A DNA stretch of 64,000 nucleotides from Methanocella sp. (GTDB lineage: Archaea; Thermoproteota; Bathyarchaeia; Bathyarchaeales; Bathycorpusculaceae): positions 113,757 to 177,756 of the forward strand of contig JBLNCY010000010.1 of NCBI GenBank assembly GCA_050261115.1, read 5' to 3'. Positions 2,098-61,916 of this stretch are shown in pieces (positions within the stretch are counted from its first letter, which is position 1; every line of letters starts with the position of its first letter). The translations under genes were made by a program, and so were the position numbers. Below the pieces are notes generated by a model. The model worked only from the letters and a program-made list of their open reading frames with translations. It was not told where the DNA came from and made no database searches.

Positions 2098-2230
2098 TAA
2101 ATAGGCGTATTTTCTATCCCGGTGCAGTTGCACAGCCCCAGTGCCAAGAACCAACAAACACCAGACATACACTGCTACCGTCCAGTTGCTGAGTCTATAT
2201 AAGGGCAGAGGGTCTCTGTGAGAGCCACAG
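2098..2230 (+). repeat. Dispersed intergenic repeat, copy A (internal deletion relative to copy D)
   Basis: TAAATAGGCGTATTTT...AAGAACCAACAAACACCAGACATACAC...GTTGCTGAGTCTATATAAGGGC...GTGAGAGCCACAG aligns by eye with copies at 16.1, 55.2 and 61.8 kb. Confidence 0.8.
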
Positions 2231-2323
2231 AAGCAAAATACCTACCCTACTGGTAAGATGCAACATTAGATGTCTACAAGAATAATTATCTCGCCAAACA
2301 CCTATACATAATGGAGAAAAACC

Positions 2324-2914
2324 ATGCAGTCAAACAGCAAAAATAGGCTCCCGCCCGACCAAAAGGCCACTGACCACATACTCCGCTGGGGAACCGAACA
2401 TCCCGGCATAACCAGCACCAACCCACAAATCAACACCCAAACCTACACTCTAACAATCGAAGGCGAAGTTAAACACCCCACAACGCTTAGCTGGAACGAA
2501 TTCTTAGCACTGCCCCAAACCGTTTCAGTAAGCGACTTCCACTGCGTCGAAGGCTGGAGCGTACTGGACTGCAAATGGGAGGGCGTACGCATTCGCGACA
2601 TAGAAGCATTGGTAAAGCCCCATGAGGTAGCGCGGGCAGTAACGTTTGAATGCGCTGACGGCTATACCACATCACTGTATCGAACCGAACTATCCGGCGA
2701 CGACGTGCTACTCGCGCATAAACTAAACGACGCCCCCTTGGAGGAGGGTTTGGGGTATCCAGTTAGGCTTGTTGTGCCAAGCAAGTATGCTTACAAAAGT
2801 GCGCTCTGGGTGGTAAAGGTGCGGTTTACACGGGGGAAGGAGCTTGGGTTCTGGGAGCGGCGGGGTTATAGTGACCGTGCGGACGTATGGAAAAACGATC
2901 GCTTCAGCCGCTAA
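2324..2914 (+). CDS. Molybdopterin-dependent oxidoreductase, sulfite oxidase-like single domain
   Basis: DFHCVEGWS with Mo-ligand Cys, GYPVRLVVPSKYAYKSALWV, GFWERRGY. Confidence 0.9.
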   Translation: MQSNSKNRLPPDQKATDHILRWGTEHPGITSTNPQINTQTYTLTIEGEVKHPTTLSWNEFLALPQTVSVSDFHCVEGWSVLDCKWEGVRIRDIEALVKPHEVARAVTFECADGYTTSLYRTELSGDDVLLAHKLNDAPLEEGLGYPVRLVVPSKYAYKSALWVVKVRFTRGKELGFWERRGYSDRADVWKNDRFSR

Positions 2915-3056
2915 TGATGGGCGTTTCGATTAAATCACAAAGACATGCTCGCAAGGTGTTTTTGAAAGTCAGAAAATGTAATGTTATTGCATATTGGTGA
3001 GTAGATAAGGTTTATTAGTTGTCTATGATACTGATGTGAATTCCAAGGGGTGTAAT

Positions 3057-3173
3057 ATGGTGACCAAGCAGAACTCAAAGGCAAAGAAAGCCGCAGCCAA
3101 AGAAAACAGCAAAACGGTGGCCAAGAAACGCAAAGAGGACGCCCAAAAAGCTCTCTACATAACACGAATCTAA
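3057..3173 (+). CDS. Putative 38-aa Lys/Ala-rich small protein
   Basis: Manual translation MVTKQNSKAKKAAAKENSKTVAKKRKEDAQKALYITRI; GGGGTG RBS-like element and TTTATT TATA-like box upstream. Confidence 0.55.
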   Translation: MVTKQNSKAKKAAAKENSKTVAKKRKEDAQKALYITRI

Positions 3174-3360
3174 ACACAACAAACCACTTTATACATTCAA
3201 GTCGGCATTGTTAGGCAATTAGCAAGCACACAACCAATTCTCCTATACTTTAACACGGCATTTCTCTTCTTTTAGCGTAGGAACCCCCAAAACCCCGCCT
3301 TTCAAGCACAAGGATAATATAGCAAACCTTGATGTTGATAGGCTGGAAGCGTGCCTCAAA

Positions 3361-4515
3361 GTGAAAAGCAAAGTAAGCAGCCTAGGATACGTCAACCGCA
3401 TACAAGAAAACATCCTTTCCATAAAAAAGAAAGAGTTAGCCCCCCTCTATGAGGAGCTCCGAGCCGCAGACTGCGTCATATGCGGAGGCAGCGGACGATC
3501 ACTTTACTCATTAAACGCCGCCATGAGCCAAATCGCTCTGGCTACAGCAGGCTGGCGCAACAAAGTCGTTTTAACACCCGACGACCCAGGCTTCCCTGGA
3601 AAAAGCATGTATGAAGCCGCGGCCGATTTAGAGCGCCGGTACAAAAAAACCGTGCTGCTTATGAACAGCGGTAGCGGTTACAGCGACGATCCCCTTGTCA
3701 TGGCACAGGATCTAGCGAAGTATATCGAAGACAAAAAATCCACCCGATTCAGCATGGGTCTATTAACCTCCGCTCCAGACTCTCCTTTAGCGGAAATCAC
3801 CCAAAAATATGGTCAAGTTGTTCAACTCAAGGGCCGAGGCAAACTCAAACCCAGCTTTGAATACTCCGAAACAGGCATGATGGGCGACATATTCGAACTC
3901 GGCACACTTGAATTACTAAACAGCATGATAGAAGCTATCTTCCGCAATCTCGACGTAGACGAAGTCTACCCGCTATGTGTGGAAGAATTCGAAAAGATGG
4001 GTGAAATGATCGACAACAACGTAAACAGCGAAACATACGTTAAAGTCGTTGACTTACTGGAAAAGCGCACCAACATTTTCCTCGGCGGCAAGGGTACCGC
4101 AAGCGAAATCGCCAAAATGACCGCCATTCGGCTCTTTCACATCAAAAGCTTCCTAGGCGACAACGTCTACATCACAAGAGGCGTCAACACACCCCACCCA
4201 CGCGCAGGCGACCTCGAAATACTTCTCAGCTGCTCAGGAGAAACCCGCCCAGTCATCCTCTGGGCAGACGTGCTCAAAAAATTCAACGGCACCGTATTTG
4301 CCATCACCAGCAACGAAGACTCTGCCTTAGCCAAAAAAGCCGACCTCAAAATCATCCTACCCGAAGAAGCCAAACCAAGTTTCCCAAGACGCTTCTACAC
4401 CAGAGCCGCATATGTGCTTAGCCCCTTACCAGTAAAGCTGGCAGAACGCCTAGGCGAGCGAGGATTAAACCTACCCGAATATATCATCAGCTGGTACCAC
4501 AGCGTCACCCAATAG
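3361..4515 (+). CDS. Tandem SIS-domain sugar-phosphate isomerase-like protein (hexulose-6-phosphate isomerase related)
   Basis: Two SIS-like halves: GSGRS...SGSG and GKGTA...SCSGET...ITSNEDSALAKKAD. Confidence 0.7.
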   Translation: MKSKVSSLGYVNRIQENILSIKKKELAPLYEELRAADCVICGGSGRSLYSLNAAMSQIALATAGWRNKVVLTPDDPGFPGKSMYEAAADLERRYKKTVLLMNSGSGYSDDPLVMAQDLAKYIEDKKSTRFSMGLLTSAPDSPLAEITQKYGQVVQLKGRGKLKPSFEYSETGMMGDIFELGTLELLNSMIEAIFRNLDVDEVYPLCVEEFEKMGEMIDNNVNSETYVKVVDLLEKRTNIFLGGKGTASEIAKMTAIRLFHIKSFLGDNVYITRGVNTPHPRAGDLEILLSCSGETRPVILWADVLKKFNGTVFAITSNEDSALAKKADLKIILPEEAKPSFPRRFYTRAAYVLSPLPVKLAERLGERGLNLPEYIISWYHSVTQ

Positions 4516-6773: not shown

Positions 6774-7349
6774 CTATGGACAGTACTCTTTGAGGGTTGT
6801 GTATGCTGGGCCTTTAGGTGAGAGCTGGCTTCTTTTTAGTTTTAGGCAGTCGCCGCGGATGTTGCCGAAGTCATAGTTTTCATGGCGCTGCACTAGGTCG
6901 ACGAGGCGTTGTTTGTTTGCGCCGCTTCGAACTCGGGCAATGGTTAGGTGGGGTGTGAATCCTTCGGGTTCTGGTTTGAATCCGAGGTCGTGGAGTTGGG
7001 GCTCGAGTTGTTCCCAGATGCTTTGAAGTTGGGCTGCGCCGTCGGTTATGCCTGCCCAAACGACTCGGGGATAGTTTATGGTGGGGAACACTCCGAGTCC
7101 TGTTACCTGTATATTGAAGGGTGTAAATTTTACGTTTTTCATGGCTTCATAGACTTTCTCTACCATCTCAGGGGTGATTTCGCCAAGAAAACGTACAGTA
7201 ATATGGATGTTTTTTGGTTCGACGAGTTTAACGTCGGCGTTTGTTTGCATAATCATTTTCTGTGCCGTTGCAATTCGGTTAACGACACTGTCGTTTGATA
7301 AGTCGAAAGCTATGAAGCTTCTTATTTTTTCGGACATACTCATCTTCAA
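6774..7349 (-). CDS. thpR: RNA 2',3'-cyclic phosphodiesterase (2H family)
   Basis: Two HxT motifs (HITVRFLG, PHLTIARV), RSFIA start, S.L.PKGP.Y end; adjacent to cca. Confidence 0.93.
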   Translation of the reverse strand: MKMSMSEKIRSFIAFDLSNDSVVNRIATAQKMIMQTNADVKLVEPKNIHITVRFLGEITPEMVEKVYEAMKNVKFTPFNIQVTGLGVFPTINYPRVVWAGITDGAAQLQSIWEQLEPQLHDLGFKPEPEGFTPHLTIARVRSGANKQRLVDLVQRHENYDFGNIRGDCLKLKRSQLSPKGPAYTTLKEYCP

Positions 7350-7462
7350 CTGTTTTTAGAACTGAATCGATACATAAATTCTTTTATTAACAGCGATAGA
7401 GCGATAATTGATGCTCTGTTGCTTTTCCGTTTTGAACGGTGTATATGGCGGCTGGTTAATGG

Positions 7463-7501
7463 CTGTTGCTCTCACAGAGACTCCCCCTCTTATATATAGA
7501 C
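7463..7501 (-). repeat. Dispersed intergenic repeat, copy F (right end only)
   Basis: Minus strand reads GTCTATATATAAGAGGGGGAGTCTCTGTGAGAGCAACAG. Confidence 0.75.
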
Positions 7502-16034: not shown

Positions 16035-16205
16035 AACTTAGCGCATTTTCTACCAGAAACAGTTTTGCAACCACTAATTATTTATTCCGCAAATATGTAG
16101 CTCCAGCCTTCAAATAACCTGCAACCATCCAGATATGCCCCGCTGTCATCGACGGTTGTTGAAAAGTCCATATATAAGGGGCGGAGTCTATTGCAGAGCA
16201 ACAAG
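16035..16205 (+). repeat. Dispersed intergenic repeat, copy C (near full length)
   Basis: TTTTCTACCAGAAACAGTTTTGCA...AACCTGCAACCATCCAGATATG...CGGTTGTTGAAAAGTCCATATATAAGGGG...CAGAGCAACAAG; between convergent genes. Confidence 0.75.
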
Positions 16206-19741: not shown

Positions 19742-20596
19742 ATGCACACAAAAAAGCTCTCAATCGTCATCCCCGCCTCGGTTATCTCGGATACGCCGCA
19801 TTTACGGGAGAAAACCGCCAAGATAGGCATAATCGCTCGATCAGCAGCTATCTTTAGAGTAGACGAAATCATAGTTTACCCCGACAACCTTAAAGCCGAC
19901 CAACGCCGCGACCTAGCATTCATCGAGCTGATACTTAACTACCTCGAGACACCTCAGTACCTTCGTAAAGCCCTCTTCAAACTTGACCCCGACCTACAAT
20001 ACGCCGGCATTCTCCCCCCACTACGTACGCCCCACCATCCTGTAAGCGGAAAAACAAAACACCTCAAAGTAGGCGAATACCGCGAAGGCGTCATCCTATC
20101 GGAGCGTAAAGACGGCCTCTCTGTTGATATTGGGGTACAGCAACCGGCGCTGATTAGACAAAAACAATTCTCTGTTGGCGAGCGTATAACTGTTCAGGTG
20201 GTTAAGGTTGGTGCCCCAGTGGAGGTGCAACCTGTCGACCGCAGTGAGGTGCCCCTATATTGGGGTTATACCGTTCGCGTTGAGAAGCGCACGTTTGGGC
20301 AACTTATGAGCGCCGGCGAGTTTGATTTAAGAATCGCTACTGCAAGAATAGGTGACCCGTTTATGGCATTAGTCGATGGAATTGCCGAGCGCTGGACAGA
20401 AAGTGGTAGCGTGTTGTTGGCGTTTGGGGCTCCGTCGCGTGGATTGCATGAAATCGCTGCTGACGAGCACTTAAAACTTGAGGATATCGCCGACTTTATT
20501 GTGAATACGATTCCAAATCAGGGAACGGCTACAGTGCGTGCAGAAGAGGCGCTTTTAGCCTCCTTGGCACTCTTTAATGCTCATTTCAGCTATTAG
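19742..20596 (+). CDS. SPOUT-class RNA methyltransferase with inserted OB fold (DUF171/MTH1-like)
   Basis: LETPQYLRK, AGILPPL.TPHH, YWGY, NTIPNQGTATVRAEEA. Confidence 0.9.
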   Translation: MHTKKLSIVIPASVISDTPHLREKTAKIGIIARSAAIFRVDEIIVYPDNLKADQRRDLAFIELILNYLETPQYLRKALFKLDPDLQYAGILPPLRTPHHPVSGKTKHLKVGEYREGVILSERKDGLSVDIGVQQPALIRQKQFSVGERITVQVVKVGAPVEVQPVDRSEVPLYWGYTVRVEKRTFGQLMSAGEFDLRIATARIGDPFMALVDGIAERWTESGSVLLAFGAPSRGLHEIAADEHLKLEDIADFIVNTIPNQGTATVRAEEALLASLALFNAHFSY

Positions 20597-41354: not shown

Positions 41355-41356
41355 GG

Positions 41357-42887: not shown

Positions 42888-42899
42888 ACATTTCTTCTC

Positions 42900-43514: not shown

Positions 43515-44178
43515 GTCCCGTTGGTTGTTTGATTACCATAACTGAGAGGGCGCCGAAGGTTTGCCCCTGCAACCTCTCAAGAGACATCATGGTTACTCTT
43601 TCATTCTCCAAAGTCAGGTTCTCACAGACCACGACTTGGGTTTCTTTGTCTGCGTCGCGTTGAAGCAGAAACGCCGCAATATCCTTAGGCGCAAAGCCTC
43701 TCGCGTCAGGCAACAGCAGGATCGTGTTTCCGCGCTGGTATGCCTGGAGCAGTTTCTCTTTCTGGTCTTCTGTTACTTGCCCTTCATGGAATGTAAAGAG
43801 CCTAGCGCTTTCCCAGTTAAGGCGTAATCGGGCTGCGCATACCTGAATGGAACTGACACCAGGAACCACATTGATCTGTTCTGGGCTAAATAAGCCGCTT
43901 TCTTGCACAGTGTGCAGTAGCCCTGAGAATCCGGGGTCGCCTGTTGACAGCAATGCGACGGTTTTGCCAGCCTTTACGGCTTCTGATGTCGCTTTGAGGG
44001 TTTCGGCGAGGTTTTTAGCGGTTAAAACCATCTTTTCGCCTTTTATGTCGCCCTCAAAGAGGCTAAGACTTCTCTGTGCACCGATAACCAGCTGTGCCTG
44101 CAGAACGCAATTTCTTGCAGCGGGGGTAATGTAGTCCGCCGAACCCGGGCCAACGCCGACTATGTCAAGTTTTCCCAA
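43498..44178 (-). CDS. cbiE: Cobalt-precorrin-7 C5-methyltransferase
   Basis: IVGVGPG, STGDPGFSG, PGVSSIQ..AAR, CENLT..NE. Confidence 0.93.
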   Translation of the reverse strand: MGKLDIVGVGPGSADYITPAARNCVLQAQLVIGAQRSLSLFEGDIKGEKMVLTAKNLAETLKATSEAVKAGKTVALLSTGDPGFSGLLHTVQESGLFSPEQINVVPGVSSIQVCAARLRLNWESARLFTFHEGQVTEDQKEKLLQAYQRGNTILLLPDARGFAPKDIAAFLLQRDADKETQVVVCENLTLENERVTMMSLERLQGQTFGALSVMVIKQPTGHEVYG

Positions 44179-45260
44179 GGCCTATCCCTCTTTGCGTTTT
44201 GATCCATACCCAACACGGTGCCATCCATGGCAACGATAACAACACTAAACTTCACTTTATGATCCACCCGATCGCTGACCTGCTTATGGACACGCTCGGC
44301 AATCAGGTCGTAGGTGGCTTCCACAAGATTTGCGTGGCGCAGGATTTCGGTTGCTTCATCAGTGGTGTTTGCCTCAAGGAGTTCTTTGACGATGGTTTGT
44401 GTTGCTCCTGCTGCAGCCGCGTAGGCTGCTATGACCTCATTTCGAGCGTCACCCATTTTGTGGTGGGTGTTGAAGAGCCTCGCGGCGAGCTTGACAAGTT
44501 TCCCCGAGTGACCGATGAAGATAATTTCTTTGACTCCTTTTTCGGCGGCTTTGTCAAGCATGTAGCCGACGAAGTCGCAGGTCTGCACTATCGCATCCTC
44601 TGGAGCGCTGAATTTCTCTTTGGCTATGCGTTCACCGATGCTGCCTGGCACAAAAATCAGCCGCTTGTACCCTCTTGCGAGGGCGACGTCGATTTGGGGC
44701 ACCATGGATCTTCGGCATGCCTCCACCGAGAGGGGCTTAACGACGCCTGTGGTGCCTAGGATGGATATGCCGCCTTTGATGCCCAATTTAGCGTTAGTGG
44801 TTTTCTTAGCTATATTCGCGCCTTCCGGTGCGCTTATGGTTACTACGGCGCCTTTTCCTTGGGGGAGAACTTCTTTGACGGCTTCTGTTATCATGGCTCG
44901 TGGAACTGGGTTGATGGCGCCTTCGCCAATCGGAACCTGCAAACCCGCCTTGGTGACGACGCCTATGCCTTCCCCGTTTCGGATGGTGATTTTGCCGTCG
45001 TCGGTTAGTTTAACGGTTGCTACTATGTCCATTTTATCGGTGGCATCGATGTCTTGACCTGCGTCCTTTACGGCGACGGCCAGGGCGGTGTCAGCGGTGA
45101 TTCTTTTGGTGGTTTTTATGGGTAGCTCGAATCTGATGCCGATGGGGGTTGGGATAACGACGCGGTTAACCTCTCCACTCAATAATACCGTTGCTGCGGC
45201 TTTGGCTGCTGCGGCCGCCGTGGCACCCGTTGATAGACCGAACTTCAAAAACCGCGCCAA
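44160..45260 (-). CDS. cbiD: Cobalt-precorrin-5B C1-methyltransferase
   Basis: G.STGATAAAAAKAA, KDAGQD.DAT, AINPVPR, LGIKGGISILGTTG, GKLVKLA. Confidence 0.96.
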   Translation of the reverse strand: MARFLKFGLSTGATAAAAAKAAATVLLSGEVNRVVIPTPIGIRFELPIKTTKRITADTALAVAVKDAGQDIDATDKMDIVATVKLTDDGKITIRNGEGIGVVTKAGLQVPIGEGAINPVPRAMITEAVKEVLPQGKGAVVTISAPEGANIAKKTTNAKLGIKGGISILGTTGVVKPLSVEACRRSMVPQIDVALARGYKRLIFVPGSIGERIAKEKFSAPEDAIVQTCDFVGYMLDKAAEKGVKEIIFIGHSGKLVKLAARLFNTHHKMGDARNEVIAAYAAAAGATQTIVKELLEANTTDEATEILRHANLVEATYDLIAERVHKQVSDRVDHKVKFSVVIVAMDGTVLGMDQNAKRDRPWENLT

Positions 45261-45274
45261 ACCCTTCTTCTCCT

Positions 45275-46348
45275 TTAACCGTAGAGTTTTCCTTCCGCTT
45301 TAGTAAGTAACGCGTTGAAGATCGCGACTGCGATGGTGCTGCCGCCTTTGCGGCCACGCGTAACGATATAGGGCACTGGTAGGTTGGCGATGGTATCTTT
45401 GGATTCGGCGGCGCCTACAAACCCCACTGGAACCGCCACAATCAGAGCCGGCTTAACTTTTCCTTCCCTGATTTGGGCTGCAAGTTCAAGGGCTGCTGTT
45501 GGAGCGTTACCGATTAGCACGATGCCGCCGTCTAAGCCATCCTCTATGGCTAACCTCATAGCTGCTGCGGACCGGGTAAGGTCCTCTTTTCTGGCGAGCT
45601 CCATTACGCGGCAGTCATTCATATAGGTCTGAACTTGAGTGCCGAACTTTTTGAGGCGCGCAGCGTTAATGCCTGCTTTAATCATTTTGACGTCGCTTAC
45701 AACTTTGGCGCCTGCTTTAATTGCGGCTACACCCGCTTGGACCGCGTTTGGGCTAATAACAATGAGCTTTGCAAACTCGGGGTCAGCTGTTGTGTGGACA
45801 ACCCGCTCCACAATGGCTATGTCGTCTGGCGGGGATTTTGCTAATTCTTCTCCTATGGCTTCTCGGATAAGCAACATGGACTTATCGACGATTTTTCCCG
45901 CTTCAGGAACTGAGTATGCGTCGAGAATTTCGCTGTCTTTTTTTAGTTCGCAGCCTAACGCTTTGAGTGCTTTCTCTTCGAGGATGTCTGCGATGCGTTC
46001 ATCGCTGCCTAAGGGTTCGCCATAGAGGAGTTCCACGCCTTTGGATTTTAGCTGGGGCTCTTTTTCTTTAACTCCGATGAGTCCAGGGATGTCCTGTGTT
46101 GTATGGACTCCTGGCGCTAGGAAGGCTGGAACCAAAACAATCTTTGAAACTCCGCTTGTTGCTATGCTGTCGATGGCTTCCTCGACGGTTGGGGTGTCCC
46201 GTATCATAAATGCAATCGAAACCGTTTGGAATTTTTTTCTAAGGCGAATGATTTCTGCTAGTTTTTCAAGGTTCTCACGGTTATGGGGCAGTTTGCTTCC
46301 ATGCCCAATGAGGATTAATCCAGCAGTTTTTGATGCGGGTTTTAACAA
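45275..46348 (-). CDS. cbiXC: Fused sirohydrochlorin cobaltochelatase (short CbiX) and cobalt-precorrin-8 methylmutase (CbiC)
   Basis: N-half GHGS, P.FLAPGVH...DIP, EPLG; C-half RVVHTTAD, TRSAAA, IGNAPTA, PVGFVGAAESK, GRKGGS; start near 46348 uncertain. Confidence 0.92.
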   Translation of the reverse strand: MLKPASKTAGLILIGHGSKLPHNRENLEKLAEIIRLRKKFQTVSIAFMIRDTPTVEEAIDSIATSGVSKIVLVPAFLAPGVHTTQDIPGLIGVKEKEPQLKSKGVELLYGEPLGSDERIADILEEKALKALGCELKKDSEILDAYSVPEAGKIVDKSMLLIREAIGEELAKSPPDDIAIVERVVHTTADPEFAKLIVISPNAVQAGVAAIKAGAKVVSDVKMIKAGINAARLKKFGTQVQTYMNDCRVMELARKEDLTRSAAAMRLAIEDGLDGGIVLIGNAPTAALELAAQIREGKVKPALIVAVPVGFVGAAESKDTIANLPVPYIVTRGRKGGSTIAVAIFNALLTKAEGKLYG

Positions 46349-46349
46349 G

Positions 46350-47651
46350 TTATTTTTTCTCCGGTTTTTCAAGCAGTCTAGCCACAGCATCTATGGCTTG
46401 TTTATCCCCGTTTTTTGCGGCTAATCTTAGATTCTCAATTAGGGGGATATATGTCTGTTTAAGTATGATGGTTGTTAAATCGTTTAGGATTCTTTTTTGA
46501 CGTTCATCTAGCTGGCCCATCATGGCTGTTGCAGTTGCGAGTTCTCTTTTCCTTATTTGTTCAGCTTTAGAGAGGAGTGCGGACGCGATTAGGCGTATGC
46601 TTAGGCTTTTGACGTCCTCTTCAAGAAGCACGCGTTCCTTGTCGATAATGGCTTGTGCCTGTTCTATGGCGGCTTTTCGTTGAGCCCTGTTTGTGTCTGC
46701 AATCAGCTTTAAGTCATCTATATTGTAGAGCTTAACGCCTTGGACTTCAGTTACGTTTTTCTCGACGTTTCGGGGGTTTGATATGTCGATAATTACCATT
46801 GGGCTGGGGTTTTGGCGCTCGTTCATCAATCGTGTGATTATTTCTTTAGTAAGCAAATAGTGGGGCGCCGAAGTAGCACAAATGACTACGTCAGCGTCTG
46901 CCATAACCTCATCAAACCTGTCCCAACGAACCGCTTGTCCTGAGAGTTCCTCTGCAAGCTTGACTGCACGATCGTAGGTGCGGTTAGCAATAAAAATGGG
47001 GCTCAGGCAGCGTCTTGCCATAGCCTTGGCTACTAGGGTGCCGATTTCTCCAGCGCCCATTATGAGGATTTTTTTGTTTTCCAGGTGGTCAATCAACTTG
47101 ACCGCTAATTCTACTGCAGCTGAGCCAATAGATACGGCTCCCTTGTTGATTCCGGTTTCGCTGCGAACTTTCCTGCCTACCGAGACTGCTCGAGTAAAGA
47201 GGAGTTTGAGGATGGGGCCGATTGTTTTTTCTTTGTCGGCTTCTATGTAGGCGTTCCAGGCTTGGTTTAGGATTTGGTCTTCGCCTATAACCATGGATTC
47301 CATGCCTGCGGTAACTCGGAGTAAGTGATTGATTGCCTCGTTATCGATTGAGCTTTCTATTGCTTGGAATGCTTCTTGCGCTTGGTCGCCAGCTCTATTA
47401 GCTAAAAAATTTTTGGTTATGTCTATTAGGTTTTCTGTTTCTTCTGCTACGAGGTAAATTTCGATGCGGTTGCAGGTTTGCAGGTAGAGGCATTCTTCTA
47501 CGCCCTCTATCGTGCGTAGTTCTGTGAGGGCTTGGGTTTTGTCTTGATAGGCGACTGCCTCCATGAGGGGAACACGTGCTGTTTTATGCGTTATTCTTAT
47601 GTTAAGTACGTGATCGACCTTCCTAGAGGCATTCATGGTTGGATAAACCAT
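46350..47651 (-). CDS. hemA: Glutamyl-tRNA reductase
   Basis: THKTA, QTCNRIEIY, SMVIGEDQILNQ, GAGEIG, ANRT, DISNPRNV. Confidence 0.96.
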   Translation of the reverse strand: MVYPTMNASRKVDHVLNIRITHKTARVPLMEAVAYQDKTQALTELRTIEGVEECLYLQTCNRIEIYLVAEETENLIDITKNFLANRAGDQAQEAFQAIESSIDNEAINHLLRVTAGMESMVIGEDQILNQAWNAYIEADKEKTIGPILKLLFTRAVSVGRKVRSETGINKGAVSIGSAAVELAVKLIDHLENKKILIMGAGEIGTLVAKAMARRCLSPIFIANRTYDRAVKLAEELSGQAVRWDRFDEVMADADVVICATSAPHYLLTKEIITRLMNERQNPSPMVIIDISNPRNVEKNVTEVQGVKLYNIDDLKLIADTNRAQRKAAIEQAQAIIDKERVLLEEDVKSLSIRLIASALLSKAEQIRKRELATATAMMGQLDERQKRILNDLTTIILKQTYIPLIENLRLAAKNGDKQAIDAVARLLEKPEKK

Positions 47652-47814
47652 CCACCTTAAATATAACGTTTGTGGTAATTACCATCAAGGTGCCACTAGA
47701 CGACAGCACAAGCAACCCATCGCAAACTAACCACAAATATCTATCCTTTCGGAGCAGGACTCAAAAACCTCATAACCAACCACACCCTTAACGCTCTATA
47801 AGAGGGGCCCCAAA

Positions 47815-48471
47815 TTGTTGATTGACCTAAAACTCAACGGCAAAACAGTCATGGTGATAGGAGGCGGCGCAGAAGCCTACCGCAAAACCCAAAGCTTCCT
47901 AGACTCAGGCGCCACCATATGGTTAATCAGCAAAGAATTCTCCAAAGAAGTCCTCCAACTGGGAGAAACCAAAAAAGTCGCCCTACTCAAAACCGAAATC
48001 AAAGACGCCAAAACATTCATAGAAAACCTAAACCCCAAACCTGACGTGCTCCTAGCAGCCACAGACAACAGCAAACTAAATCTTGAACTCGTCAAAGCAG
48101 CAAAAACCTACGGCTCCACAGTCTACGCCGTAGATAACCCTGCAATAAGCGATTTCATTCTACCTGCCGTTGCCCGCGTAGGAGATGTAAAGATAGCTGT
48201 TTCCACCGGCGGCAAAAGCCCTGCCATGGCACACCTCCTACGGGAACGCATTGAGAAACTCGTTACGCCCCTTGATTTGCTCGAGATACAACTCCAAGAA
48301 AAAATACGCCCCCAGCTAAAAAACCGTATAGCTGACCCGAAGGTGCGAAGCAAAACACTATATGATATCCTCAATAGTGTAGAAGTAAAAGCCGCTTTGA
48401 TGGAAGGGCAAATTTCTGAAGCCGAAGAATTGGCTTTGCAATTAATCCAAAAGGATGAGGTAAAACAATGA
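47815..48471 (+). CDS. sirC: Precorrin-2 dehydrogenase (SirC / CysG N-terminal type)
   Basis: VIGGG.EA.RK, AATD...N, VDNP..SDF..PA, VSTGGKSP. Confidence 0.92.
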   Translation: MLIDLKLNGKTVMVIGGGAEAYRKTQSFLDSGATIWLISKEFSKEVLQLGETKKVALLKTEIKDAKTFIENLNPKPDVLLAATDNSKLNLELVKAAKTYGSTVYAVDNPAISDFILPAVARVGDVKIAVSTGGKSPAMAHLLRERIEKLVTPLDLLEIQLQEKIRPQLKNRIADPKVRSKTLYDILNSVEVKAALMEGQISEAEELALQLIQKDEVKQ

Positions 48472-49448
48472 CTTTTCCGACTGTAAGGATGAGAAGACTT
48501 CGAAGAACCCAAGCATTAAGAGACATGCTAAATCCCCTGAACCTGTCTGCGAGTCATCTGATTTATCCAATTTTTGTCGAAGAAGGCATAGATGCGCCTG
48601 TGCCTATCAACTCCATGCCCGGCTACAGTCGCCTACCACTCGCAATGGTAGCGGAGGAGGGCAAATATGCCCTAGCGCAAGGCTGCAAGGGCGTCCTTCT
48701 CTTTGGCATACCCGCAGAGAAAGATGAAGTGGGCACTCAGGCCTACGCTAAAGAGGGCATCGTCCAGAGAGCCATTCGGGAACTTAAAAAAGCACACGGC
48801 CCCGACCTCGTGATTATCGGTGATGTTTGCCTCTGCGAGTACATGAGCCATGGGCACTGCGGCATAGTCAAAGACGGTGAAATCCAAAATGACGCCACTC
48901 TGGAGTTGCTGGGCAAAACTGCGGTTAGCTATGCCGAGGCAGGAGTAGACATTGTTGCGCCCTCTGCCATGATGGATGGCCAAATCGGTGCTATCCGTGA
49001 GGCACTTGACCAAGCAGGATACGAGCAGAATCCAATTTTGGCTTATTCTGCGAAGTATGCTTCGGGCTTCTATGGCCCCTTCCGGGAAGCCGCCGAGTCA
49101 ACCCCCAAGTTCGGTGACCGCCGCAGCTATCAGATGAATCCGGGCAGCCAAGTCGAGGCGCTCCGAGAAATAGAGCTGGACATTGCTGAGGGTGCGGATA
49201 TGATTATGATTAAGCCTGCCTTGGCGTATCTTGACGTTATCGCTTTGGCTAAGGCTAATTTTAATATGCCCATCGTTGCCTACAACGTGAGCGGCGAGTA
49301 CAGTATGGTGAAAGCCGCCGCCGAGAAGGGCTGGATAGACGAGAAAACCATAACCCGCGAAATCCTGCTTGGCATCAAACGTGCAGGCGCCGACCTCATC
49401 ATAACCTATCACGCTAAAGACGCAAAATCATGGTTGAATCAGCCTTGA
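48468..49448 (+). CDS. hemB: Porphobilinogen synthase
   Basis: RMRRLR, DVCLCEY..HGHCG, APSAMMDG, FYGPFREA, IKPA, YNVSGEY. Confidence 0.98.
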   Translation: MTFPTVRMRRLRRTQALRDMLNPLNLSASHLIYPIFVEEGIDAPVPINSMPGYSRLPLAMVAEEGKYALAQGCKGVLLFGIPAEKDEVGTQAYAKEGIVQRAIRELKKAHGPDLVIIGDVCLCEYMSHGHCGIVKDGEIQNDATLELLGKTAVSYAEAGVDIVAPSAMMDGQIGAIREALDQAGYEQNPILAYSAKYASGFYGPFREAAESTPKFGDRRSYQMNPGSQVEALREIELDIAEGADMIMIKPALAYLDVIALAKANFNMPIVAYNVSGEYSMVKAAAEKGWIDEKTITREILLGIKRAGADLIITYHAKDAKSWLNQP

Positions 49449-50746
49449 CTCTACCCAAATCTAAATCGCTCTTTGAGCGAGCTAAAAATGTCCTACCTGG
49501 CGGAGTAAACAGTCCCGTCCGCGCCTTTGAGCCCTATCCCTTCTTTGTTACCTCAGCCAAAGGCTCCAAGATGGTTGACGCCGACAAAAACACCTACCTG
49601 GATTACTGTATGGCTTACGGCGCGCTGCTATTGGGCCACGCTTACCCCGAAATATTGCAAGCCGTTGCGGAGCAGTTGCCAAAGGGTACCCTCTACGGTG
49701 TACCAACCGAGCAGGAAGTTGCCTTCGCCGAAGAAATCGGCCAGGCCTCCCCCTGTATGGAGATGCTGCGGCTAGTCAACAGCGGCACCGAAGCCACCAT
49801 GCATTCAATACGCGCCGCCAGAGGCTATACTAACCGAAAGAAAATCGTAAAGTTTGACGGGTGCTTCCACGGCAGCCACGACAACGTGCTGGTGAAGGCA
49901 GGGTCTGGGGCGGCGACGTTTGGTGCCCCCAACTCGCTTGGAGTTCCAGATGACACTACCAAAAACACAATCGTGCTGCCCTACAATGATGTGGCGGCGC
50001 TCGAGCAGGTATTCCAAGCAGAGGGGAACGAAATCGCCGCGGTCATCCTCGAACCTGTCCTTGCCAATGTCGGTTTGATTCTGCCCCAACTAGATTATCT
50101 CCAAAGCCTAAGAAAACTCACCTCCCAGTATGGGGCTGTGCTGATTTTTGATGAAATCATCACTGGGTTCCGTCTTTCGTTGGGTGGCGCCCAGGAGTAT
50201 TTCGGCGTAAAACCTGACATGGCGACCTTGGGTAAGGTGTTGGGCGGCGGCTTCCCGTTGGCTGCGTTTGGCGGCAAGAAGGAAATCATGCAAAACATAA
50301 GCCCCCTCGGTAAAGTCTATCAGGCGGGTACCTTTAGCGGTAACCCGGTCTCTGTAGCGGCGGGCATGGCAATCGTCGGGTACTTAGTTAAGAACAAGCA
50401 GACGCTCTATCCTAACCTCGAAAAGAACGCTGTCCAACTCAAAAAGGCCTTAGTTGACCTATCTGCTGATTACAAGCTTCCAGCACAGGTCCACAGCATA
50501 GCTTCGCTCTTCCAGATATTCTTCACCAACGAATCCGTCACTGACTACTCATCTGCCAAACAAAGCGACCCCGCCATGTTTAGCGCGTACTTCCAAAGCC
50601 TGCTAAAAGAGGGCGTCTTTATTCCGCCGTCGCAGTATGAGACCTGCTTCCTATCAAACGCTCACAGCCCCGAGGACTTTGAATTCACCATTGTCGCGTT
50701 CGATAAGGCACTGGCGTCAGCGGCAAAAACGAGGAAACCCCCATGA
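49430..50746 (+). CDS. hemL: Glutamate-1-semialdehyde 2,1-aminomutase
   Basis: PGGVNSPVRA, NSGTEAT, FDEIITGFR, GKVLGGG, QAGTFSGNP. Confidence 0.97.
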   Translation: MVESALTLPKSKSLFERAKNVLPGGVNSPVRAFEPYPFFVTSAKGSKMVDADKNTYLDYCMAYGALLLGHAYPEILQAVAEQLPKGTLYGVPTEQEVAFAEEIGQASPCMEMLRLVNSGTEATMHSIRAARGYTNRKKIVKFDGCFHGSHDNVLVKAGSGAATFGAPNSLGVPDDTTKNTIVLPYNDVAALEQVFQAEGNEIAAVILEPVLANVGLILPQLDYLQSLRKLTSQYGAVLIFDEIITGFRLSLGGAQEYFGVKPDMATLGKVLGGGFPLAAFGGKKEIMQNISPLGKVYQAGTFSGNPVSVAAGMAIVGYLVKNKQTLYPNLEKNAVQLKKALVDLSADYKLPAQVHSIASLFQIFFTNESVTDYSSAKQSDPAMFSAYFQSLLKEGVFIPPSQYETCFLSNAHSPEDFEFTIVAFDKALASAAKTRKPP

Positions 50747-51678
50747 AGCTAACTGTAGGTACACGCGGCAGCAAACTCGCATTAGCCCAAACCAACCGTA
50801 CCCTCAACCAAATAAAAGCCAAAAACCCAGACATCGAATTCGAGCTAAAAATCATCCATACTGCTGGCGACAAGGATCACAGTAAACCGCTCTTTAGCAT
50901 CGACTGTAAAGGCATCTTTGAGAAGGAAATCGATCAGCAAGTCGTCGCTGGAGAGGTAGATTTTGCGGTGCACAGCCTAAAAGATGTTCCCATTGTGGAG
51001 CAGCAGTCCGGCACAGTGTTGGCGGCGATTCCAAAAAGGGATTCCCGCTGCGACGTATTTATCTCGAAAGACAGAACCCCCTTACTGCAACTGCCTCTGG
51101 GCGCAGTGGTTGGCACAGGTAGCCTTCGCCGTTTAGCCCAAATCAAACATTTACGCCCCGACCTCGAAGTAACACCGATCAGGGGTAACATCGACACCCG
51201 CATAGGTAAAGTAACAAAAGGCGAACTTGCAGGCATAGTTCTTGCCGAAGCAGGCCTTGAACGCATGCACATAACTGAGGAAATGACCGAGCGCTTACCG
51301 CTGGATCAATTTCCCTCCGCAGCCGGCCAAGGCGCGATCGCTGTTGTCGCCAAAGAAGACAACGACCAAGTAATCAGCATCCTCCAATCAGTTGAGGACA
51401 AAGCAAGCCGAGCAGAAATAACTGCTGAACGCAGCCTCGTCTTGAAGCTGGAAGGCGGCTGCAGAGTCCCCATCGGCGCCGTCGCAGTGGCCAGCGGAGA
51501 CAAACTTACCCTCTCAGGCAGCGTCTACTCTCTGGAAGGACAAAAAAAGATAACTGCCCACGCAAGCGGCACCCTATCCCAAGCCGCCGAGCTGGGTGCA
51601 AAAGTCGGCGCCGACCTCATCTTACTTGGCGCGGAAGACTTTGAGAAGCAATGGAGAGAAAAATATGGCGCATGGTAA
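50743..51678 (+). CDS. hemC: Hydroxymethylbilane synthase
   Basis: GTRGSKLALAQ, AVHSLKD, GTGSLRR, RGNIDTR, EGGCRVP. Confidence 0.97.
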   Translation: MKLTVGTRGSKLALAQTNRTLNQIKAKNPDIEFELKIIHTAGDKDHSKPLFSIDCKGIFEKEIDQQVVAGEVDFAVHSLKDVPIVEQQSGTVLAAIPKRDSRCDVFISKDRTPLLQLPLGAVVGTGSLRRLAQIKHLRPDLEVTPIRGNIDTRIGKVTKGELAGIVLAEAGLERMHITEEMTERLPLDQFPSAAGQGAIAVVAKEDNDQVISILQSVEDKASRAEITAERSLVLKLEGGCRVPIGAVAVASGDKLTLSGSVYSLEGQKKITAHASGTLSQAAELGAKVGADLILLGAEDFEKQWREKYGAW

Positions 51679-52420
51679 AGTCTACCTCGTCGGCGCAGGA
51701 CCCGGCGACCCCAAACTCCTCACCCTAAAAGCAGCTGAACTTATCAAACAAGCTGACGTCTTAATCTATGATCGGCTAGGCGTAAGCGACGAGGTTCTAG
51801 GCATGGCTACTGCTGGGGCAGAAAAGATTTTTGTTGGCAAACGAACTGGCCTGCATGAGGTACCCCAAGATAAAATCACTGAACTTATAATCCAGAAAGC
51901 CAAAGAGGGCGGCAATGTGGTTCGGCTAAAAGGCGGTGACCCCTTCATTTTTGGCCGTGGCGGCGAAGAAGCTGAGGCGCTGGTGGCAGAGGGAATTGAG
52001 TTTGAGATTGTGCCCGGTATTAGTTCTTCGGTGTCGGCGCCTATGTATGCGGGCATCCCCCTCACGCACCGCGACTACGCCGCTTCAGTTGCAATAATTA
52101 CCGGTCATAGGGCTGGAGATGCAGAGAAACCTATAGATTGGGTGAAAATTGCCAACTCAGTCGATACCATGGTTATCCTTATGGGTGTGGAATCGCTTGA
52201 GGATATAGTAGGCAAGTTGCTTGTGGGCGGCATCAGCCCCGATAGGCCCATTGCGATGGTTGAGTCAGGCACTCTTCCCCAGCAGCGGACTCTAATTGCC
52301 ACCTTAGGCACGGTCGTTAAAGAGGCCGCGGCTAAGCAAATCAAGCCTCCCTCTGTGATAGTTATCGGTGAAGTAGCCACCTTAGGAAGGAAACTGGCAT
52401 GGTTCAAACCACCCCTCTAA
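51665..52420 (+). CDS. cobA: Uroporphyrinogen-III C-methyltransferase
   Basis: VYLVGAGPGDP.LLTLKA, RLKGGDPFIFGRGGEE, AGIPLTHR; ATG 51665. Confidence 0.96.
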   Translation: MAHGKVYLVGAGPGDPKLLTLKAAELIKQADVLIYDRLGVSDEVLGMATAGAEKIFVGKRTGLHEVPQDKITELIIQKAKEGGNVVRLKGGDPFIFGRGGEEAEALVAEGIEFEIVPGISSSVSAPMYAGIPLTHRDYAASVAIITGHRAGDAEKPIDWVKIANSVDTMVILMGVESLEDIVGKLLVGGISPDRPIAMVESGTLPQQRTLIATLGTVVKEAAAKQIKPPSVIVIGEVATLGRKLAWFKPPL

Positions 52421-53235
52421 AAGGCCGAGTAGTCGCCATCACCCGCCCCTCAGGCCAAGCTGCGGAAGCAGGCGAACTTATCCGCGCCAAAGGCGGCGTA
52501 CCCTACTACATCCCCGCCATCGAAATCAAGGGTCTAAGTAACCCTGAACCCATGAAGAAGTTCATTGCGGAACTCTCAGGCAGCAGCGTTGACTATGTTG
52601 TTTTGATGAGTACAAACGGTGTAAGGTATCTCTTTTTAGCTGCTGATGAGGTCAAGCAAACTCAGCTGTTAAGGGAAGGTTTAGAAAAAACCTGTGTTAT
52701 AGCTGTGGGGCCTAAAACCGCTGAAGCCCTAAAGGACTGCAACGTCAGGGTGGATATGATTCCTCAAAAGTACAGCGGTGACGGTCTCCTTGAAGCCCTC
52801 AAAGAAGCTGACCTTGGGGGCAAGAAGATTCGGATTCCACGCACAAGTAACGCGGCTCCAACATTAACCAATCAGCTTAGAGCCTGCGGTGCCGATGTCG
52901 AAGAAATCTACGTCTACGAATCAGGGTTACCTGTGGATGAAGCGCTTAAAACCAAGTTTTATCAAGACCTCGCCGAGGGCCGTATTGATGCGCTTCTTTT
53001 CGGTAGCGGGTTGAGCGCTAAAAATATTTTCAAGATGCTCACCGAAAAGGCTCCAATGGAACAGCTACGCCAAATCCTTAAAGAGAAGAAGGTTACTGTG
53101 GTGGCGATTGGCCCAACAACCGCCCAGGCGCTTCAAGAGCTGGATGTAGCGGTGGATGTTGTTCCTGAGGATTATCTTTTTGATAAGGCGCTTGATGCTC
53201 TTGCCGCATACTGGTCAAGACTCGCCAGTCCGTAG
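52399..53235 (+). CDS. hemD: Uroporphyrinogen-III synthase
   Basis: AITRP, STNGV, AVGPKTAEAL, AIGPTTA.AL; follows cobA. Confidence 0.92.
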   Translation: MVQTTPLKGRVVAITRPSGQAAEAGELIRAKGGVPYYIPAIEIKGLSNPEPMKKFIAELSGSSVDYVVLMSTNGVRYLFLAADEVKQTQLLREGLEKTCVIAVGPKTAEALKDCNVRVDMIPQKYSGDGLLEALKEADLGGKKIRIPRTSNAAPTLTNQLRACGADVEEIYVYESGLPVDEALKTKFYQDLAEGRIDALLFGSGLSAKNIFKMLTEKAPMEQLRQILKEKKVTVVAIGPTTAQALQELDVAVDVVPEDYLFDKALDALAAYWSRLASP

Positions 53236-54940: not shown

Positions 54941-55079
54941 ACAAAATCACTCTATCAGTCTAGCCTGAATGAGCGTATTTAAGCATCTGTTGTTGCAGGC
55001 ACGAATAACAGAAGACGCCAAGGGAACAGCTGCATCTTGACTGAATTGTACCCTGTACTGAAAGCTAAGTGCTCGCTTT

Positions 55080-55250
55080 ACAGGCGGGTTCGTTTTCGGC
55101 CTGAAACAGTTGTGCAGTCAGCAATTAACCCCCTCTGCAATCGCATAGTCGCAGCCGTTAAGAACCAGCAACCACCAAGACATACACCAACGGCCCCTTG
55201 CGGTTGTTGAGTCTATATGTAAGGGAGGGGGTAGGTCGTGAGAGCAACAG
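55080..55250 (+). repeat. Dispersed intergenic repeat, copy B (near full length)
   Basis: GAAACAGTTGTGCA...AAGAACCAGCAACCACCAAGACATACAC...CGGTTGTTGAGTCTATATGTAAGGGAGGGGGTAGGTCGTGAGAGCAACAG. Confidence 0.8.
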
Positions 55251-55367
55251 AGAAAAGACAAACTAGAACCATCCGTCAACAAATCTACCAACCCGAAGAA
55301 ACCCACAAGAAAAATTCTACAGGGTCTACTGTTATATCGCGGGCTGCTGATGTTGTCTTGATCTCTA

Positions 55368-55733
55368 ATGGCTGCTTTAAGTTTTAAAGCGTATGTGGTT
55401 TACTTGATCCTTAACGGGAAAACCGAAGAAGCACTAGAATTACTCGCCAAAGAATACTGCGTTGCGGTGCCTACATTGCGGGTGGGGCTGCCAAAAGGCC
55501 ACAAAACCACCGCTTATGGCTGCTATACAGCAAAAACCCAAACCATTACTGTGCTAAACAGCGACATACTCGCTAACCCATTTGTTATTCTTCACGAATT
55601 CTATCATCATCTGCGCTGCCGCGGCATTGATCGAGTGCATCGCGGAACGGAGGGCAACGCAGACAAATTTGCCCAAACCTTTCTTGCCGAATTTCAAACC
55701 GAAGCCGCACGGCATCGAGCAGGCGGTCAATAG
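55368..55733 (+). CDS. Small zincin-like metallopeptidase domain protein
   Basis: YGCY....TITV, ILHEFYHH (HExxH), downstream E..AD.FA. Confidence 0.75.
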   Translation: MAALSFKAYVVYLILNGKTEEALELLAKEYCVAVPTLRVGLPKGHKTTAYGCYTAKTQTITVLNSDILANPFVILHEFYHHLRCRGIDRVHRGTEGNADKFAQTFLAEFQTEAARHRAGGQ

Positions 55734-60204: not shown

Positions 60205-60219
60205 ATGCCCAAGCACTTG

Positions 60220-60250
60220 AAAAGAGTTTTATCTCTTTTTTAATTTTTAT
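60220..60250 (+). terminator. Hairpin plus T-tract after ssb
   Basis: AAAAGAG-TTTTAT-CTCTTTT followed by T-runs. Confidence 0.45.
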
Positions 60251-60356
60251 TTAACCTACTTATAGACTGTTTGTCGGCTACGTTACCTTTAAATCGTCAT
60301 AGGCTTTGAGAACCCATAAAACACCTCTGTTATTGTGGTGAATAGGAGACTCTGCC

Positions 60357-61730
60357 TTGACATCGAACGAAAAAATTAAACCAACCGTTGAGGAGTTGCT
60401 TGCTAAAGCTAAAAAACCCGCTCAGCTCTCGCCAGCTATGCATAGGTATTATGAGGGTAAAATGCAGGTTATTCCTAAATGTGCCATCCGAAGCGTAGAT
60501 GACTTTGCCTTATGGTACACTCCAGGCGTCGCAGCGCCGTGCAAAGAGATACAAGCCGACCCCGAGAAATCTTTCGAGTTAACTAACCGATGGAATAGCG
60601 TTGCAGTCGTTAGTGACGGAACCCGTGTACTTGGGTTAGGCGATATCGGTCCAGAGGCAGCCATGCCCGTTATGGAAGGCAAATCTCTCCTATTCAAGTA
60701 TCTAGGCGGTGTAGACGCAACAGCCATATGCCTAAACACCAAAGACCCCGACGAGTTGATTAGGGCCTGTGAGTTGATTGAGCCTACGTTTGGCGGCATA
60801 AACTTGGAGGATATTGCTTCGCCTAAGTGTTTCTATGTGCTTGAGAAAGCCGCCGAGAAGCTAGAGATTCCGGTTTGGCATGATGATCAGCAGGGAACTG
60901 CGGCAGTGATCTTGGCGGGTCTAATTAATGCTTTCAAGATAGTGGGCAAGAAGCCTCAAGATAGCCAAATAGCGCTTGTCGGAGCAGGCGCCGCAAATAC
61001 CCGAACAGCCTATGTTCTTATGCGTTGGGGCGTTAAACCTGGCAACATAATTATGGCTGACATTAACGGCATCGTTTACCCCGGCCGGCCTGATATCACT
61101 GAGGAGAATCGTTGGCTCTATGAATTATCTAAAGTGACAAACAATGAGGGTCGGAGAGGTGGTGTGGCTGAAGCATTGAAGGGTATGGATGCGGTGGTTG
61201 CTGCGTCTAAGCCGGGTCCCGATACGATAAAGAAGGATTGGATACGGAACATGGCTGATGACTCTATCGTGTTTGCCTGTGCGAATCCGATTCCTGAGAT
61301 TTGGCCTTGGGATGCTGAAGAAGCTGGCGCATGCATAGTCGCAACGGGCAGAAGCGACTTCCCCAACCAGGTTAACAACAGCTTAGGCTTCCCGGCGATC
61401 TTCCGTGGCGTATTAGACGTGAAAGCCAAAACCATCACAGACGACATGTGCATAGCAGCTGCAACTGAACTCGCAAAGTATGCTGAAGAGCGAGGCATGA
61501 ATGAAAAGGACATTCTGCCGCGGATGGACGAGTGGGAAGTCTTCCCTCGAGAAGCTGTTGCTTGCGCCCTAAAATCTATCGAGCAAGGCGTCGCACGCAT
61601 AAAGCCCAGCCGACAGGAACTATATGACCGCGCGTCCGCAATAATACGCAATGCTCGCCAATCAACAGAGTTGCTAATGAAGCACGGGCAGATTAAGCAA
61701 CCGCCAAGCGAAGAGGACTTACTGAAATAA
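60357..61730 (+). CDS. NAD(P)-dependent malic enzyme
   Basis: YTPGVA, DGTRVLGLGDIG, VMEGK, INLEDI, HDDQQGTA, GAGAA, ATGRSDFPNQVNN. Confidence 0.95.
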   Translation: MTSNEKIKPTVEELLAKAKKPAQLSPAMHRYYEGKMQVIPKCAIRSVDDFALWYTPGVAAPCKEIQADPEKSFELTNRWNSVAVVSDGTRVLGLGDIGPEAAMPVMEGKSLLFKYLGGVDATAICLNTKDPDELIRACELIEPTFGGINLEDIASPKCFYVLEKAAEKLEIPVWHDDQQGTAAVILAGLINAFKIVGKKPQDSQIALVGAGAANTRTAYVLMRWGVKPGNIIMADINGIVYPGRPDITEENRWLYELSKVTNNEGRRGGVAEALKGMDAVVAASKPGPDTIKKDWIRNMADDSIVFACANPIPEIWPWDAEEAGACIVATGRSDFPNQVNNSLGFPAIFRGVLDVKAKTITDDMCIAAATELAKYAEERGMNEKDILPRMDEWEVFPREAVACALKSIEQGVARIKPSRQELYDRASAIIRNARQSTELLMKHGQIKQPPSEEDLLK

Positions 61731-61752
61731 TTTCCTTTTCTTTGGGCTAGTG

Positions 61753-61916
61753 CTGCTGCTTTGCTGACCTACCCCTCCCTTATATATAGACTCAACAACC
61801 ACCGACAATAGCCATATACATCTGGTCGTTTGCAGGTTTCTGGCGCTGACAGCCATATGACTGCAGCGAATAGTTGATTTTTAGCTGCTGTTTTTGCTAA
61901 AAAATAAGCCTATTTA
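61753..61916 (-). repeat. Dispersed intergenic repeat, copy D (near full length)
   Basis: Minus strand TAAATAGGCTTATTTT...AAACCTGCAAACGACCAGATG...GGTTGTTGAGTCTATATATAAGGGAGGGGTAGGTCAGCAAAGCAGCAG. Confidence 0.8.

Follow-up and report, generated by a model that had tools for sequence, protein, structure and literature searches.

An intergenic repeat with archaeal promoter geometry, dispersed among unrelated genes in a bathyarchaeial contig, is probably a family of promoter cassettes

Introduction

The core promoter of archaea has an A/T-rich TATA box of ~8 bp, centred ~25-27 nt upstream of the transcription start, and a purine-rich B recognition element (BRE) immediately upstream of the TATA box, which sets the direction. 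Here we describe a dispersed intergenic repeat with a TATA-like core in 64,000 nt of DNA from Methanocella sp. (GTDB lineage Bathyarchaeia; assembly GCA_050261115.1, contig JBLNCY010000010.1, positions 113,757 to 177,756 of the forward strand). This whole stretch is referred to below as the window. The repeat is present in the window in six copies, named c1 to c6 in order of position, and at seven loci of a second, metagenome-assembled genome (MAG). It probably represents a family of promoter cassettes of archaea; copies of it would have reached unrelated intergenic sites, and selection would have kept the core.

Several kinds of repeated sequence are relevant to this family. Haloarchaeal rRNA operons have tandem repeated promoters upstream, which are near-identical, lie 100-200 bp apart and fire in the same direction. 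Insertion sequences (IS) of the IS200/IS605 type have no terminal inverted repeats and no target duplications; their ends carry conserved hairpins, and the scaffold of the TnpB guide (omega) RNA is highly structured. The closest known concept is that of the putative mobile promoter (PMP) of Matus-Garcia, Nijveen and van Passel. In the passages that define them, PMPs are similar non-coding sequences upstream of unrelated genes in one genome, some of them shared between taxa; they are identified by similarity rather than by a transposition machinery, and their means of movement is left undefined (PMC3575422). The screen outlined there took sequences with an identity of 80% or more along 50 nt or more, between -150 and -50 of the start codon, and in its remarks on archaea the commentary reports no promoter group shared between Archaea and Bacteria (PMC3575422). 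Correia, ERIC and REPIN sequences are named in the same text as promoter-carrying elements (PMC3575422). In halovirus HF2, intergenic repeats of 58 and 29 bp contain AT-rich promoter motifs, are conserved among related genomes and, according to the account given of them, have promoter activity shown with reporters (Russ, Pfeiffer and Dyall-Smith 2021, PMC8707807).

The bathyarchaeial repeat resembles PMPs, as they are defined there, in being a similar non-coding sequence upstream of non-paralogous genes (unrelated Pfam families) in one genome, and the best-supported reading is that the cassette is another putative mobile promoter. Set against the cut-off of the published screen, pairs of window copies reach 76-97% identity over just 29-55 nt of core (repeat pairs I1, I4, I8 and D19), and the identity of the long copies, 0.5-0.76 in 20-column windows, lies below it, whereas several MAG pairs pass with 82-91% over 116-254 bp. 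The cassette also differs from PMPs, as far as their definition goes, in that both the TATA box and the predicted start fall within its core and that a third of the copies face convergent genes. Like the HF2 repeats, the copies are short repeated intergenic sequences with promoter motifs in an archaeal genome, the promoter being predicted here from the sequence. Unlike those of HF2, a haloarchaeal virus in which, in the account cited above, the repeats keep fixed relative positions, they are chromosomal, up to ~170 bp long, and have a G-rich spacer and an upstream module.

Results and Discussion

Six related intergenic copies in the window

An initial annotation of the window had reported six related non-coding sequences. 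We built nhmmer models from five copies at a time and searched the window for the omitted sixth. All six were recovered at essentially the places where they had been reported: c1 at 2123-2232 (+) with E 3e-12, c2 at 7452-7501 (-) with E 1e-7, c3 at 16035-16203 (+) with E 2e-16, c4 at 38540-38603 (-) with E 4e-8, c5 at 55101-55252 (+) with E 7e-18 and c6 at 61752-61879 (-) with E 2e-14. Apart from the copies, a single match at E<1 (E 0.94) appeared in the window over all six runs, placing the relatedness well above chance. Four copies are long (c1, c3, c5 and c6), and c2 and c4 align just over the right-hand ~50-64 nt. In a refutation test set beforehand, we used models of solely the part 5' of the TATA core, with the GGTTGTTGA block also removed. 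These found each of the four long copies when it was omitted (c1 E 2e-4, c3 E 3e-7, c5 E 7e-8, c6 E 2e-7), demonstrating that the similarity outside the TATA-like core also exceeds chance. The copies and the genes that they face, with functions assigned by Pfam where indicated, are as follows.

c1, 2098-2232 (+): long copy with an internal gap of ~31 columns; TATA 8-mer at 2196, AGC block at 2222. Co-directional molybdopterin-oxidoreductase gene (Pfam) at 2324-2914, ~100 nt downstream.
c2, 7452-7501 (-): core alone; TATA 8-mer at 7496, AGC block at 7471. Co-directional LigT-like gene (Pfam) at 6774-7349, ~120 nt downstream.
c3, 16035-16205 (+): full-length, occupying most of a 209-bp gap between convergent genes. 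Predicted start near 16195, 15 nt from the stop codon (16210) of an opposite-strand GFO/IDH/MocA oxidoreductase gene (Pfam).
c4, 38540-38603 (-): core and a short piece of the upstream part; the convergent genes on its two sides are 95 bp apart. Predicted start near 38551, 14 nt from the last base of the stop codon (38537) of an opposite-strand 56-aa C2H2 zinc-finger open reading frame (ORF).
c5, 55080-55252 (+): full-length, in a divergent intergenic region; TATA 8-mer (with one A to G change) at 55216, AGC block at 55242. Co-directional 121-aa ORF at 55368-55733.
c6, 61752-61916 (-): full-length. Predicted start near 61762, 32 nt from the last base of the stop codon (61730) of a convergent malic-enzyme gene (Pfam) at 60357-61730.
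c6 candidate upstream promoter-like site, 61926-61962 (-): a TATA-like 9-mer repeated 173 nt from that of the core (direct repeat D3).

All six copies lie outside the accepted ORFs, which make up 88% of the window, and gene context agrees with the earlier description of copies in either orientation between convergent, tandem and divergent genes. Three small ORFs of 49-62 aa overlap c5 (55037-55210 (+), 55118-55306 (-) and 55238-55387 (+)); they are probably spurious and carry a risk of miscalling. The zinc-finger ORF beside c4 (38367-38537 (+)) and a 59-aa YHS-domain protein beside c6 (62077-62256 (+)) both have clear Pfam matches and fall under the usual length cut.

A core with fixed spacing is shared with a second genome

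Relatives of the repeat were sought with a degenerate core pattern of 17 fixed bases, five restricted bases and a free gap of 14-19 nt. The scan returned seven loci (L001-L007), all in one MAG, "uncultured archaeon isolate MFD01872.bin.1.337"; the window itself was not among the matches. A core model run on the 64-kb window and 28 kb of MAG loci found 13 strong copies, six in the window and seven in the MAG. It next ranked five weaker matches (E 1e-6 to 0.48), each just downstream of a strong core (L001, L002, L003, L005 and L006). Beyond these, its best match in the same DNA had E 0.63, suggesting that the core is distinct from generic promoters. That match lies at 21825-21861 (+), in the gap between two convergent genes, 20577-21830 and a DUF4331 gene at 21981-23021; it may be a decayed copy and was left out of the copy count.

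In the right-hand part shared by the copies, the TATA 8-mer is followed by ~16 nt rich in G and then by a block, AGAGCAAC in most copies. In all 13 strong copies the AGC block comes 25-27 nt after the first T of the 8-mer. Measured to the purine before AGC, the distance is 25 or 26 nt in all six window copies; in the seven MAG loci the block stands 26-27 nt from the TATA. The scan pattern permitted a 6-nt range of spacings, and the observed spacing is narrower. This TATA-to-block distance matches the archaeal TATA-to-start geometry. The sequence of the spacer is also retained: its identity between window and MAG is 0.46, whereas 2000 shuffles of matched composition gave 0.32 +/- 0.016 and did not exceed 0.38.

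Among the four long copies, mean pairwise identity in 20-column windows is 0.69-0.76 from GGTTGTTGA to the TATA and falls to 0.39, then to 0.22, directly past the AGC block. Conservation therefore ceases ~10 nt past the predicted start, and the sharp right end noted initially is real. A second peak of 0.69 covers the AACC.GCAA...CCAGA block, ~45-70 nt upstream of the TATA. In the long copies, the upstream module as a whole spans ~110-130 nt at 50-69% identity, and the complete unit, from left block to right end, measures ~135-175 bp. Its blocks keep a constant order, as first described; TAAATAGGCNTATTTT is exact in c1 and c6 alone and GAAACAG in c3 and c5. The earlier remark that three copies begin within about 25 bp of a stop codon applies to c1 (6 nt) and not to c3 (34 nt) or c4 (29 nt). 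Right ends are more regular, at 4 (c3), 2 (c4) and 21 nt (c6) from the stop codon of the convergent gene.

Independent spreading of the upstream blocks was also considered. GGTTGTTGA has four matches in the window, three of them in copies, and the window holds no additional intergenic site for either GGTTGTTGA or AACCNGCAAMC; this candidate was rejected. An 18-nt direct repeat, 78% identical, pairs the 3' coding end of a DinB-like polymerase gene (2043-2060) with the right-end block of c1 (2221-2238) and is probably due to chance.

Core and upstream module were compared between the two genomes. The cores of c5 and c6 are 85-93% identical to those of L004 and L005 over 43-46 nt. The only homologous gene common to the window and the MAG loci encodes a DUF4331 protein and has 69% DNA and 71% protein identity. 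The core is thus better kept than the sole comparable coding sequence, which argues for function or for recent transfer. In the MAG, the DUF4331 homologue is ~1.3 kb upstream of the L006 cassette; the window DUF4331 gene is not beside a strong copy. We saw no copy position common to the two genomes, in which only one weakly syntenic spot was comparable. Upstream modules resemble each other more within a genome (window E 2e-4 to 7e-8) than between genomes (MAG to window E 0.019), suggesting duplication or homogenisation after the lineages split. Five MAG loci (L001, L002, L003, L005 and L006) further share a MAG-specific repeat, 72-91% identical along 116-389 bp and situated ~150-250 bp upstream of the core. 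It occupies oriented positions ~1770-2000, at unrelated loci, and contains both a tract rich in G+T and a short inverted pair, GGGC...GCCC; a divergent promoter may be located in it. The window does not have this repeat. Low-complexity G+T-rich intergenic tracts that resemble the tracts upstream of the MAG cassettes are present in the window at 36630-36780, after an isopropylmalate-synthase-like gene, and at 25560-25640 (+), upstream of the ORF 25688-26872.

Evidence for and against promoter function

From the sequence, we infer promoter activity, a start site, a direction of firing and spread. TBP and TFB would bind the TATA region, and transcription would start 24-26 nt after the first T of the 8-mer, at an A that follows C or G. 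RNA polymerase would thus start at the conserved block and read rightwards out of the element. Where a co-directional gene lies beyond, the product would be a transcript with a leader of 100-600 nt; where the gene is convergent, it would be an antisense RNA that starts 12-32 nt past the stop codon of that gene. The family would have been propagated to unrelated loci in each genome by a duplicative process, with selection retaining the core. Among the readings listed in the initial annotation, the promoter cassette is favoured by the TATA 8-mer, the fixed 25-27 nt spacing and the end of conservation ~10 nt later; a structured RNA and a repetitive extragenic palindromic (REP)-like element are not. 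The idea of a mobile element survives in the loose sense of spread to unrelated loci in each genome; no ends of the IS type or of the type of MITEs (miniature transposable elements with inverted repeats), no target duplications and, in the window, no transposase were found to go with it.

Three genes of known orientation in the window served as calibration. A leaderless-looking gene at 19742 has the identical TATA 8-mer 24 nt before its ATG, and the gene at 59543 (-) has GTTGAGC right before its TATA, like GTTGAGTC before that of the repeat. The tRNA-Val gene is preceded by a similar TATA and then, as in the repeat, purines, and a start 25 nt on would give it a leader of 12-14 nt. Together, these genes suggest that the repeat is a promoter firing rightwards, out of the element. 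All 13 strong copies are intergenic, and nine of them face a co-directional ORF 100-600 nt away. These ORFs are unrelated. Those in the window encode a Mo-oxidoreductase, LigT and the 121-aa product; in the MAG they are MobB/MobA, a class II aminoacyl-tRNA synthetase, a NuoE-like protein, a putative glycosyl hydrolase, an ORF of no recognised kind and a DDE transposase fragment. Only in the leaders that would follow c1, c2 and c5 is the composition rich in A (0.37-0.43) and poor in G (0.14-0.18).

Several observations weigh against the promoter cassette. The remaining four copies (c3, c4, c6 and L007) are directed at a convergent gene's 3' end, a place that calls for no promoter; the predicted starts are 15, 14, 32 and 12 nt, respectively, from the convergent stop codon, and the gene opposed in the MAG is that of aRF1. 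A proportion of nine out of 13 is not significantly above half (binomial ~0.13, our own estimate), so driving genes does not by itself explain where the copies are placed. The TATA run is nearly palindromic and is preceded by GTTGAGTC or TTCAGTC, unlike the purine-rich BRE consensus of the textbook type; the direction consequently rests on indirect points. The G-rich stretch is a further difficulty, G+C-rich DNA at the site of melting being unusual for archaeal promoters. At c2 and c5, TATA-like hexamers stand closer to the genes, so their main promoter may be another than the cassette. Because the seven MAG loci were picked by pattern, the conservation of their TATA and AGC blocks follows from the search itself. 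Similarity of the upstream module between genomes is marginal, with E 0.019 for the MAG model against c5 and ~1-2 in the reverse search.

Two other clues were tried and discarded. A general strand bias, with A+C-rich leaders and G+T-rich tails, was not a usable guide to direction, as A+C was 0.50 upstream and 0.49 downstream of genes (Mann-Whitney p 0.60; 42 upstream and 30 downstream regions, copies masked). A small ORF opening at the core GTG before the AGC block (c1, c2 and c5; 49 aa in c5) was rejected because the GTG is present in three of the 13 copies alone and nothing is conserved past it.

Tandem cores in the second genome

Three MAG loci (L002, L003 and L006) have a strong core followed ~140 nt on by a second, weaker one (core model E 1e-6, 5e-5 and 0.48). 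Between the two cores, the sequence can be aligned to the upstream module of the long window copies, a cross-genome similarity that is marginal. At L001 and L005 the second weak core is just ~60 nt downstream of the first. In the window, the 9-mer site upstream of c6 aligns with the first promoter of L002, L003 and L006 and may give c6 the same two-promoter layout; as the core nhmmer model misses the site, the evidence is weak. No first promoter of the kind found in the MAG tandem units was seen upstream of c1, c3 or c5. The tandem, same-direction layout of L002, L003 and L006, and possibly of c6, is like that of haloarchaeal rRNA promoters. It differs in that no rRNA or other RNA gene follows, the tandem units preceding assorted protein genes.

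Alternative explanations

The geometry observed here, in which a conserved body stops sharply on the right and gives way to variable sequence, resembles that of a multicopy gene for a structured non-coding RNA. Such an RNA could consist of the conserved ~170 nt as such, or it could be of the guide type, with a scaffold reaching to the sharp right end. Folding energies were no better than those of shuffled sequences (z -1.64 to +1.06 in eight folds of four copies on both strands), and RNAalifold gave 0 pairs on eight sequences. No Rfam family reached threshold at any of the window copies or the seven MAG loci; matches elsewhere in the window were two tRNAs and an eL15 leader alone, and a permissive scan around c5 returned one chance-level match (E 0.087) outside the copy. 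Among the window ORFs scanned there was no TnpB-like or Cas-like gene. Given the shuffle-level folds, the lack of consensus pairs and the lack of an Rfam match at the copies, we reject this explanation as extremely improbable. A non-autonomous transposable element or the remnant of an IS end, MITE-like or IS200/IS605-like, is a less remote candidate, in which the right end would be the terminus and the TATA would be incidental or an outward promoter. The four long copies, which lie at unrelated loci and in either orientation, do have both the left block and the right end in common, the flanks past the right end are unrelated, as at the terminus of an element, and the repeat modules are genome-specific. 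L005 moreover lies ~590 nt upstream of a 183-aa ORF (oriented 2624-3175) that matches the C-terminal part of the DDE_Tnp_1 profile only (positions 76-200 of 200) and looks like an insertion-sequence fragment. Like MITEs and Correia elements, the copies are short non-coding sequences, multicopy and intergenic, lie in either orientation and would be able to provide neighbouring genes with promoters. Unlike MITEs, they have no terminal inverted repeats, target-site duplications or cognate transposase in the searches made: none of the four long copies has an inverted repeat joining its two ends, and neither such a repeat nor a flanking direct repeat is common to them, in agreement with the initial annotation. 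No transposase, TnpB, HUH or integrase family was matched among the window ORFs scanned, and blastn of c5 (181 nt) in distant mode against plasmid and phage collections found no similar DNA. The absence of inverted repeats and target duplications, and the one sharp end followed by unrelated sequence, are shared with IS200/IS605 ends, which differ in having a conserved fold; neither end of the repeat has a conserved hairpin, and TnpA and TnpB are lacking from the scanned window ORFs. Conservation is focused on the TATA-to-start core rather than even along the unit, and the core outlasts the shared gene (85-93% compared to 69%), which points to selection on the core and not to neutral decay. We consider a transposable element or IS remnant unlikely. 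A REP-like element is not supported, as no REP/REPIN palindrome was found besides the TATA run itself and no stable hairpin.

The copies could instead be ordinary promoters of co-regulated genes that are kept alike by one transcription factor or by a TFB/TFE variant, and not by spread. The second conservation peak over AACC.GCAA...CCAGA (0.69) would suit such a regulon, as would the conservation of the spacer between genomes past composition expectation and the frequency of AACCNGCAAMC, which occurs six times in the window compared to 0.43 expected, three times in copies. The other three matches, however, are inside genes, the downstream genes have no evident common function, four of the 13 copies face a convergent gene, and co-ordered blocks over 110-130 nt at 50-69% identity indicate common descent rather than shared short sites. 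A regulon is, in our judgement, quite unlikely. We regard as very unlikely that the repeat is a DNA-level site, working in either orientation, at which bound TBP/TFB or another protein blocks read-through, or a chromosome-organising site. What speaks for it is placement: the copies lie in either orientation between convergent, tandem and divergent genes, and they mostly fill the convergent gaps (171 of 209 bp at c3, 64 of 95 bp at c4, ~180 of 182 bp at L007), where their right ends come within 2-4 nt of a stop codon; the long copies, for their part, start with a T-run shortly past the upstream stop codon. There is no direct evidence of any kind for such a site, which, if it served for binding purely, would not require a block at the start position; the asymmetric conservation and fixed TATA-to-block spacing fit a directional promoter. 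A bolder form of the promoter cassette would combine these features in a punctuation module, a new archaeal mobile unit. Its left T-run would stop the upstream gene and be followed by the upstream module and a strong promoter bounded ~10 nt past the start, and it would copy itself beside stop codons with neither inverted repeats nor target duplications nor a transposase close by. It would then either drive the next gene or launch an antisense RNA or roadblock against a convergent one. We hold this combination to be speculative and, as a whole, unlikely.

Implications

If the promoter cassette is active, it would be among the few cases in which the reuse of a promoter has been documented for archaeal chromosomes. 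It would also provide a ready-made, probably strong 45-nt promoter for a lineage without genetic tools, and a natural experiment on a G+C-rich melting region and a fixed initially transcribed block with TBP, TFB and TFE. The copies that face convergent genes predict 3'-end antisense RNAs against the oxidoreductase, the small zinc-finger protein and malic enzyme and, in the MAG, against aRF1. If the repeat is merely decaying, its value would be for annotation alone, in masking spurious small ORFs. Its unusual features are the conserved G+C-rich spacer at the site of melting, the tandem layout and the copies that abut convergent stop codons.

Other features of the window

The eL15 ribosomal-protein leader identified with Rfam lies at 32697-32743 (+) (Euryarchaeota model, 44.8 bits), just upstream of the L15e gene at 32769-33386. 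Genes for CdvB, GatD/E, Elp3 and the ribosomal proteins L13e and L15e show the DNA of the window to be archaeal. At the end of the window (63669-63998), imperfect G+T-rich direct repeats (D1 and D6; 65-76% identity) are found in a minus-strand ORF that runs off the end and has no Pfam match. A tetrapyrrole/cobalamin cluster at 39547-53235, with no copy of the repeat, comprises genes on both strands for CbiH, G, F, L, T, E, D and C/X, for HemA, B, L, C and D and for a CysG-like protein.

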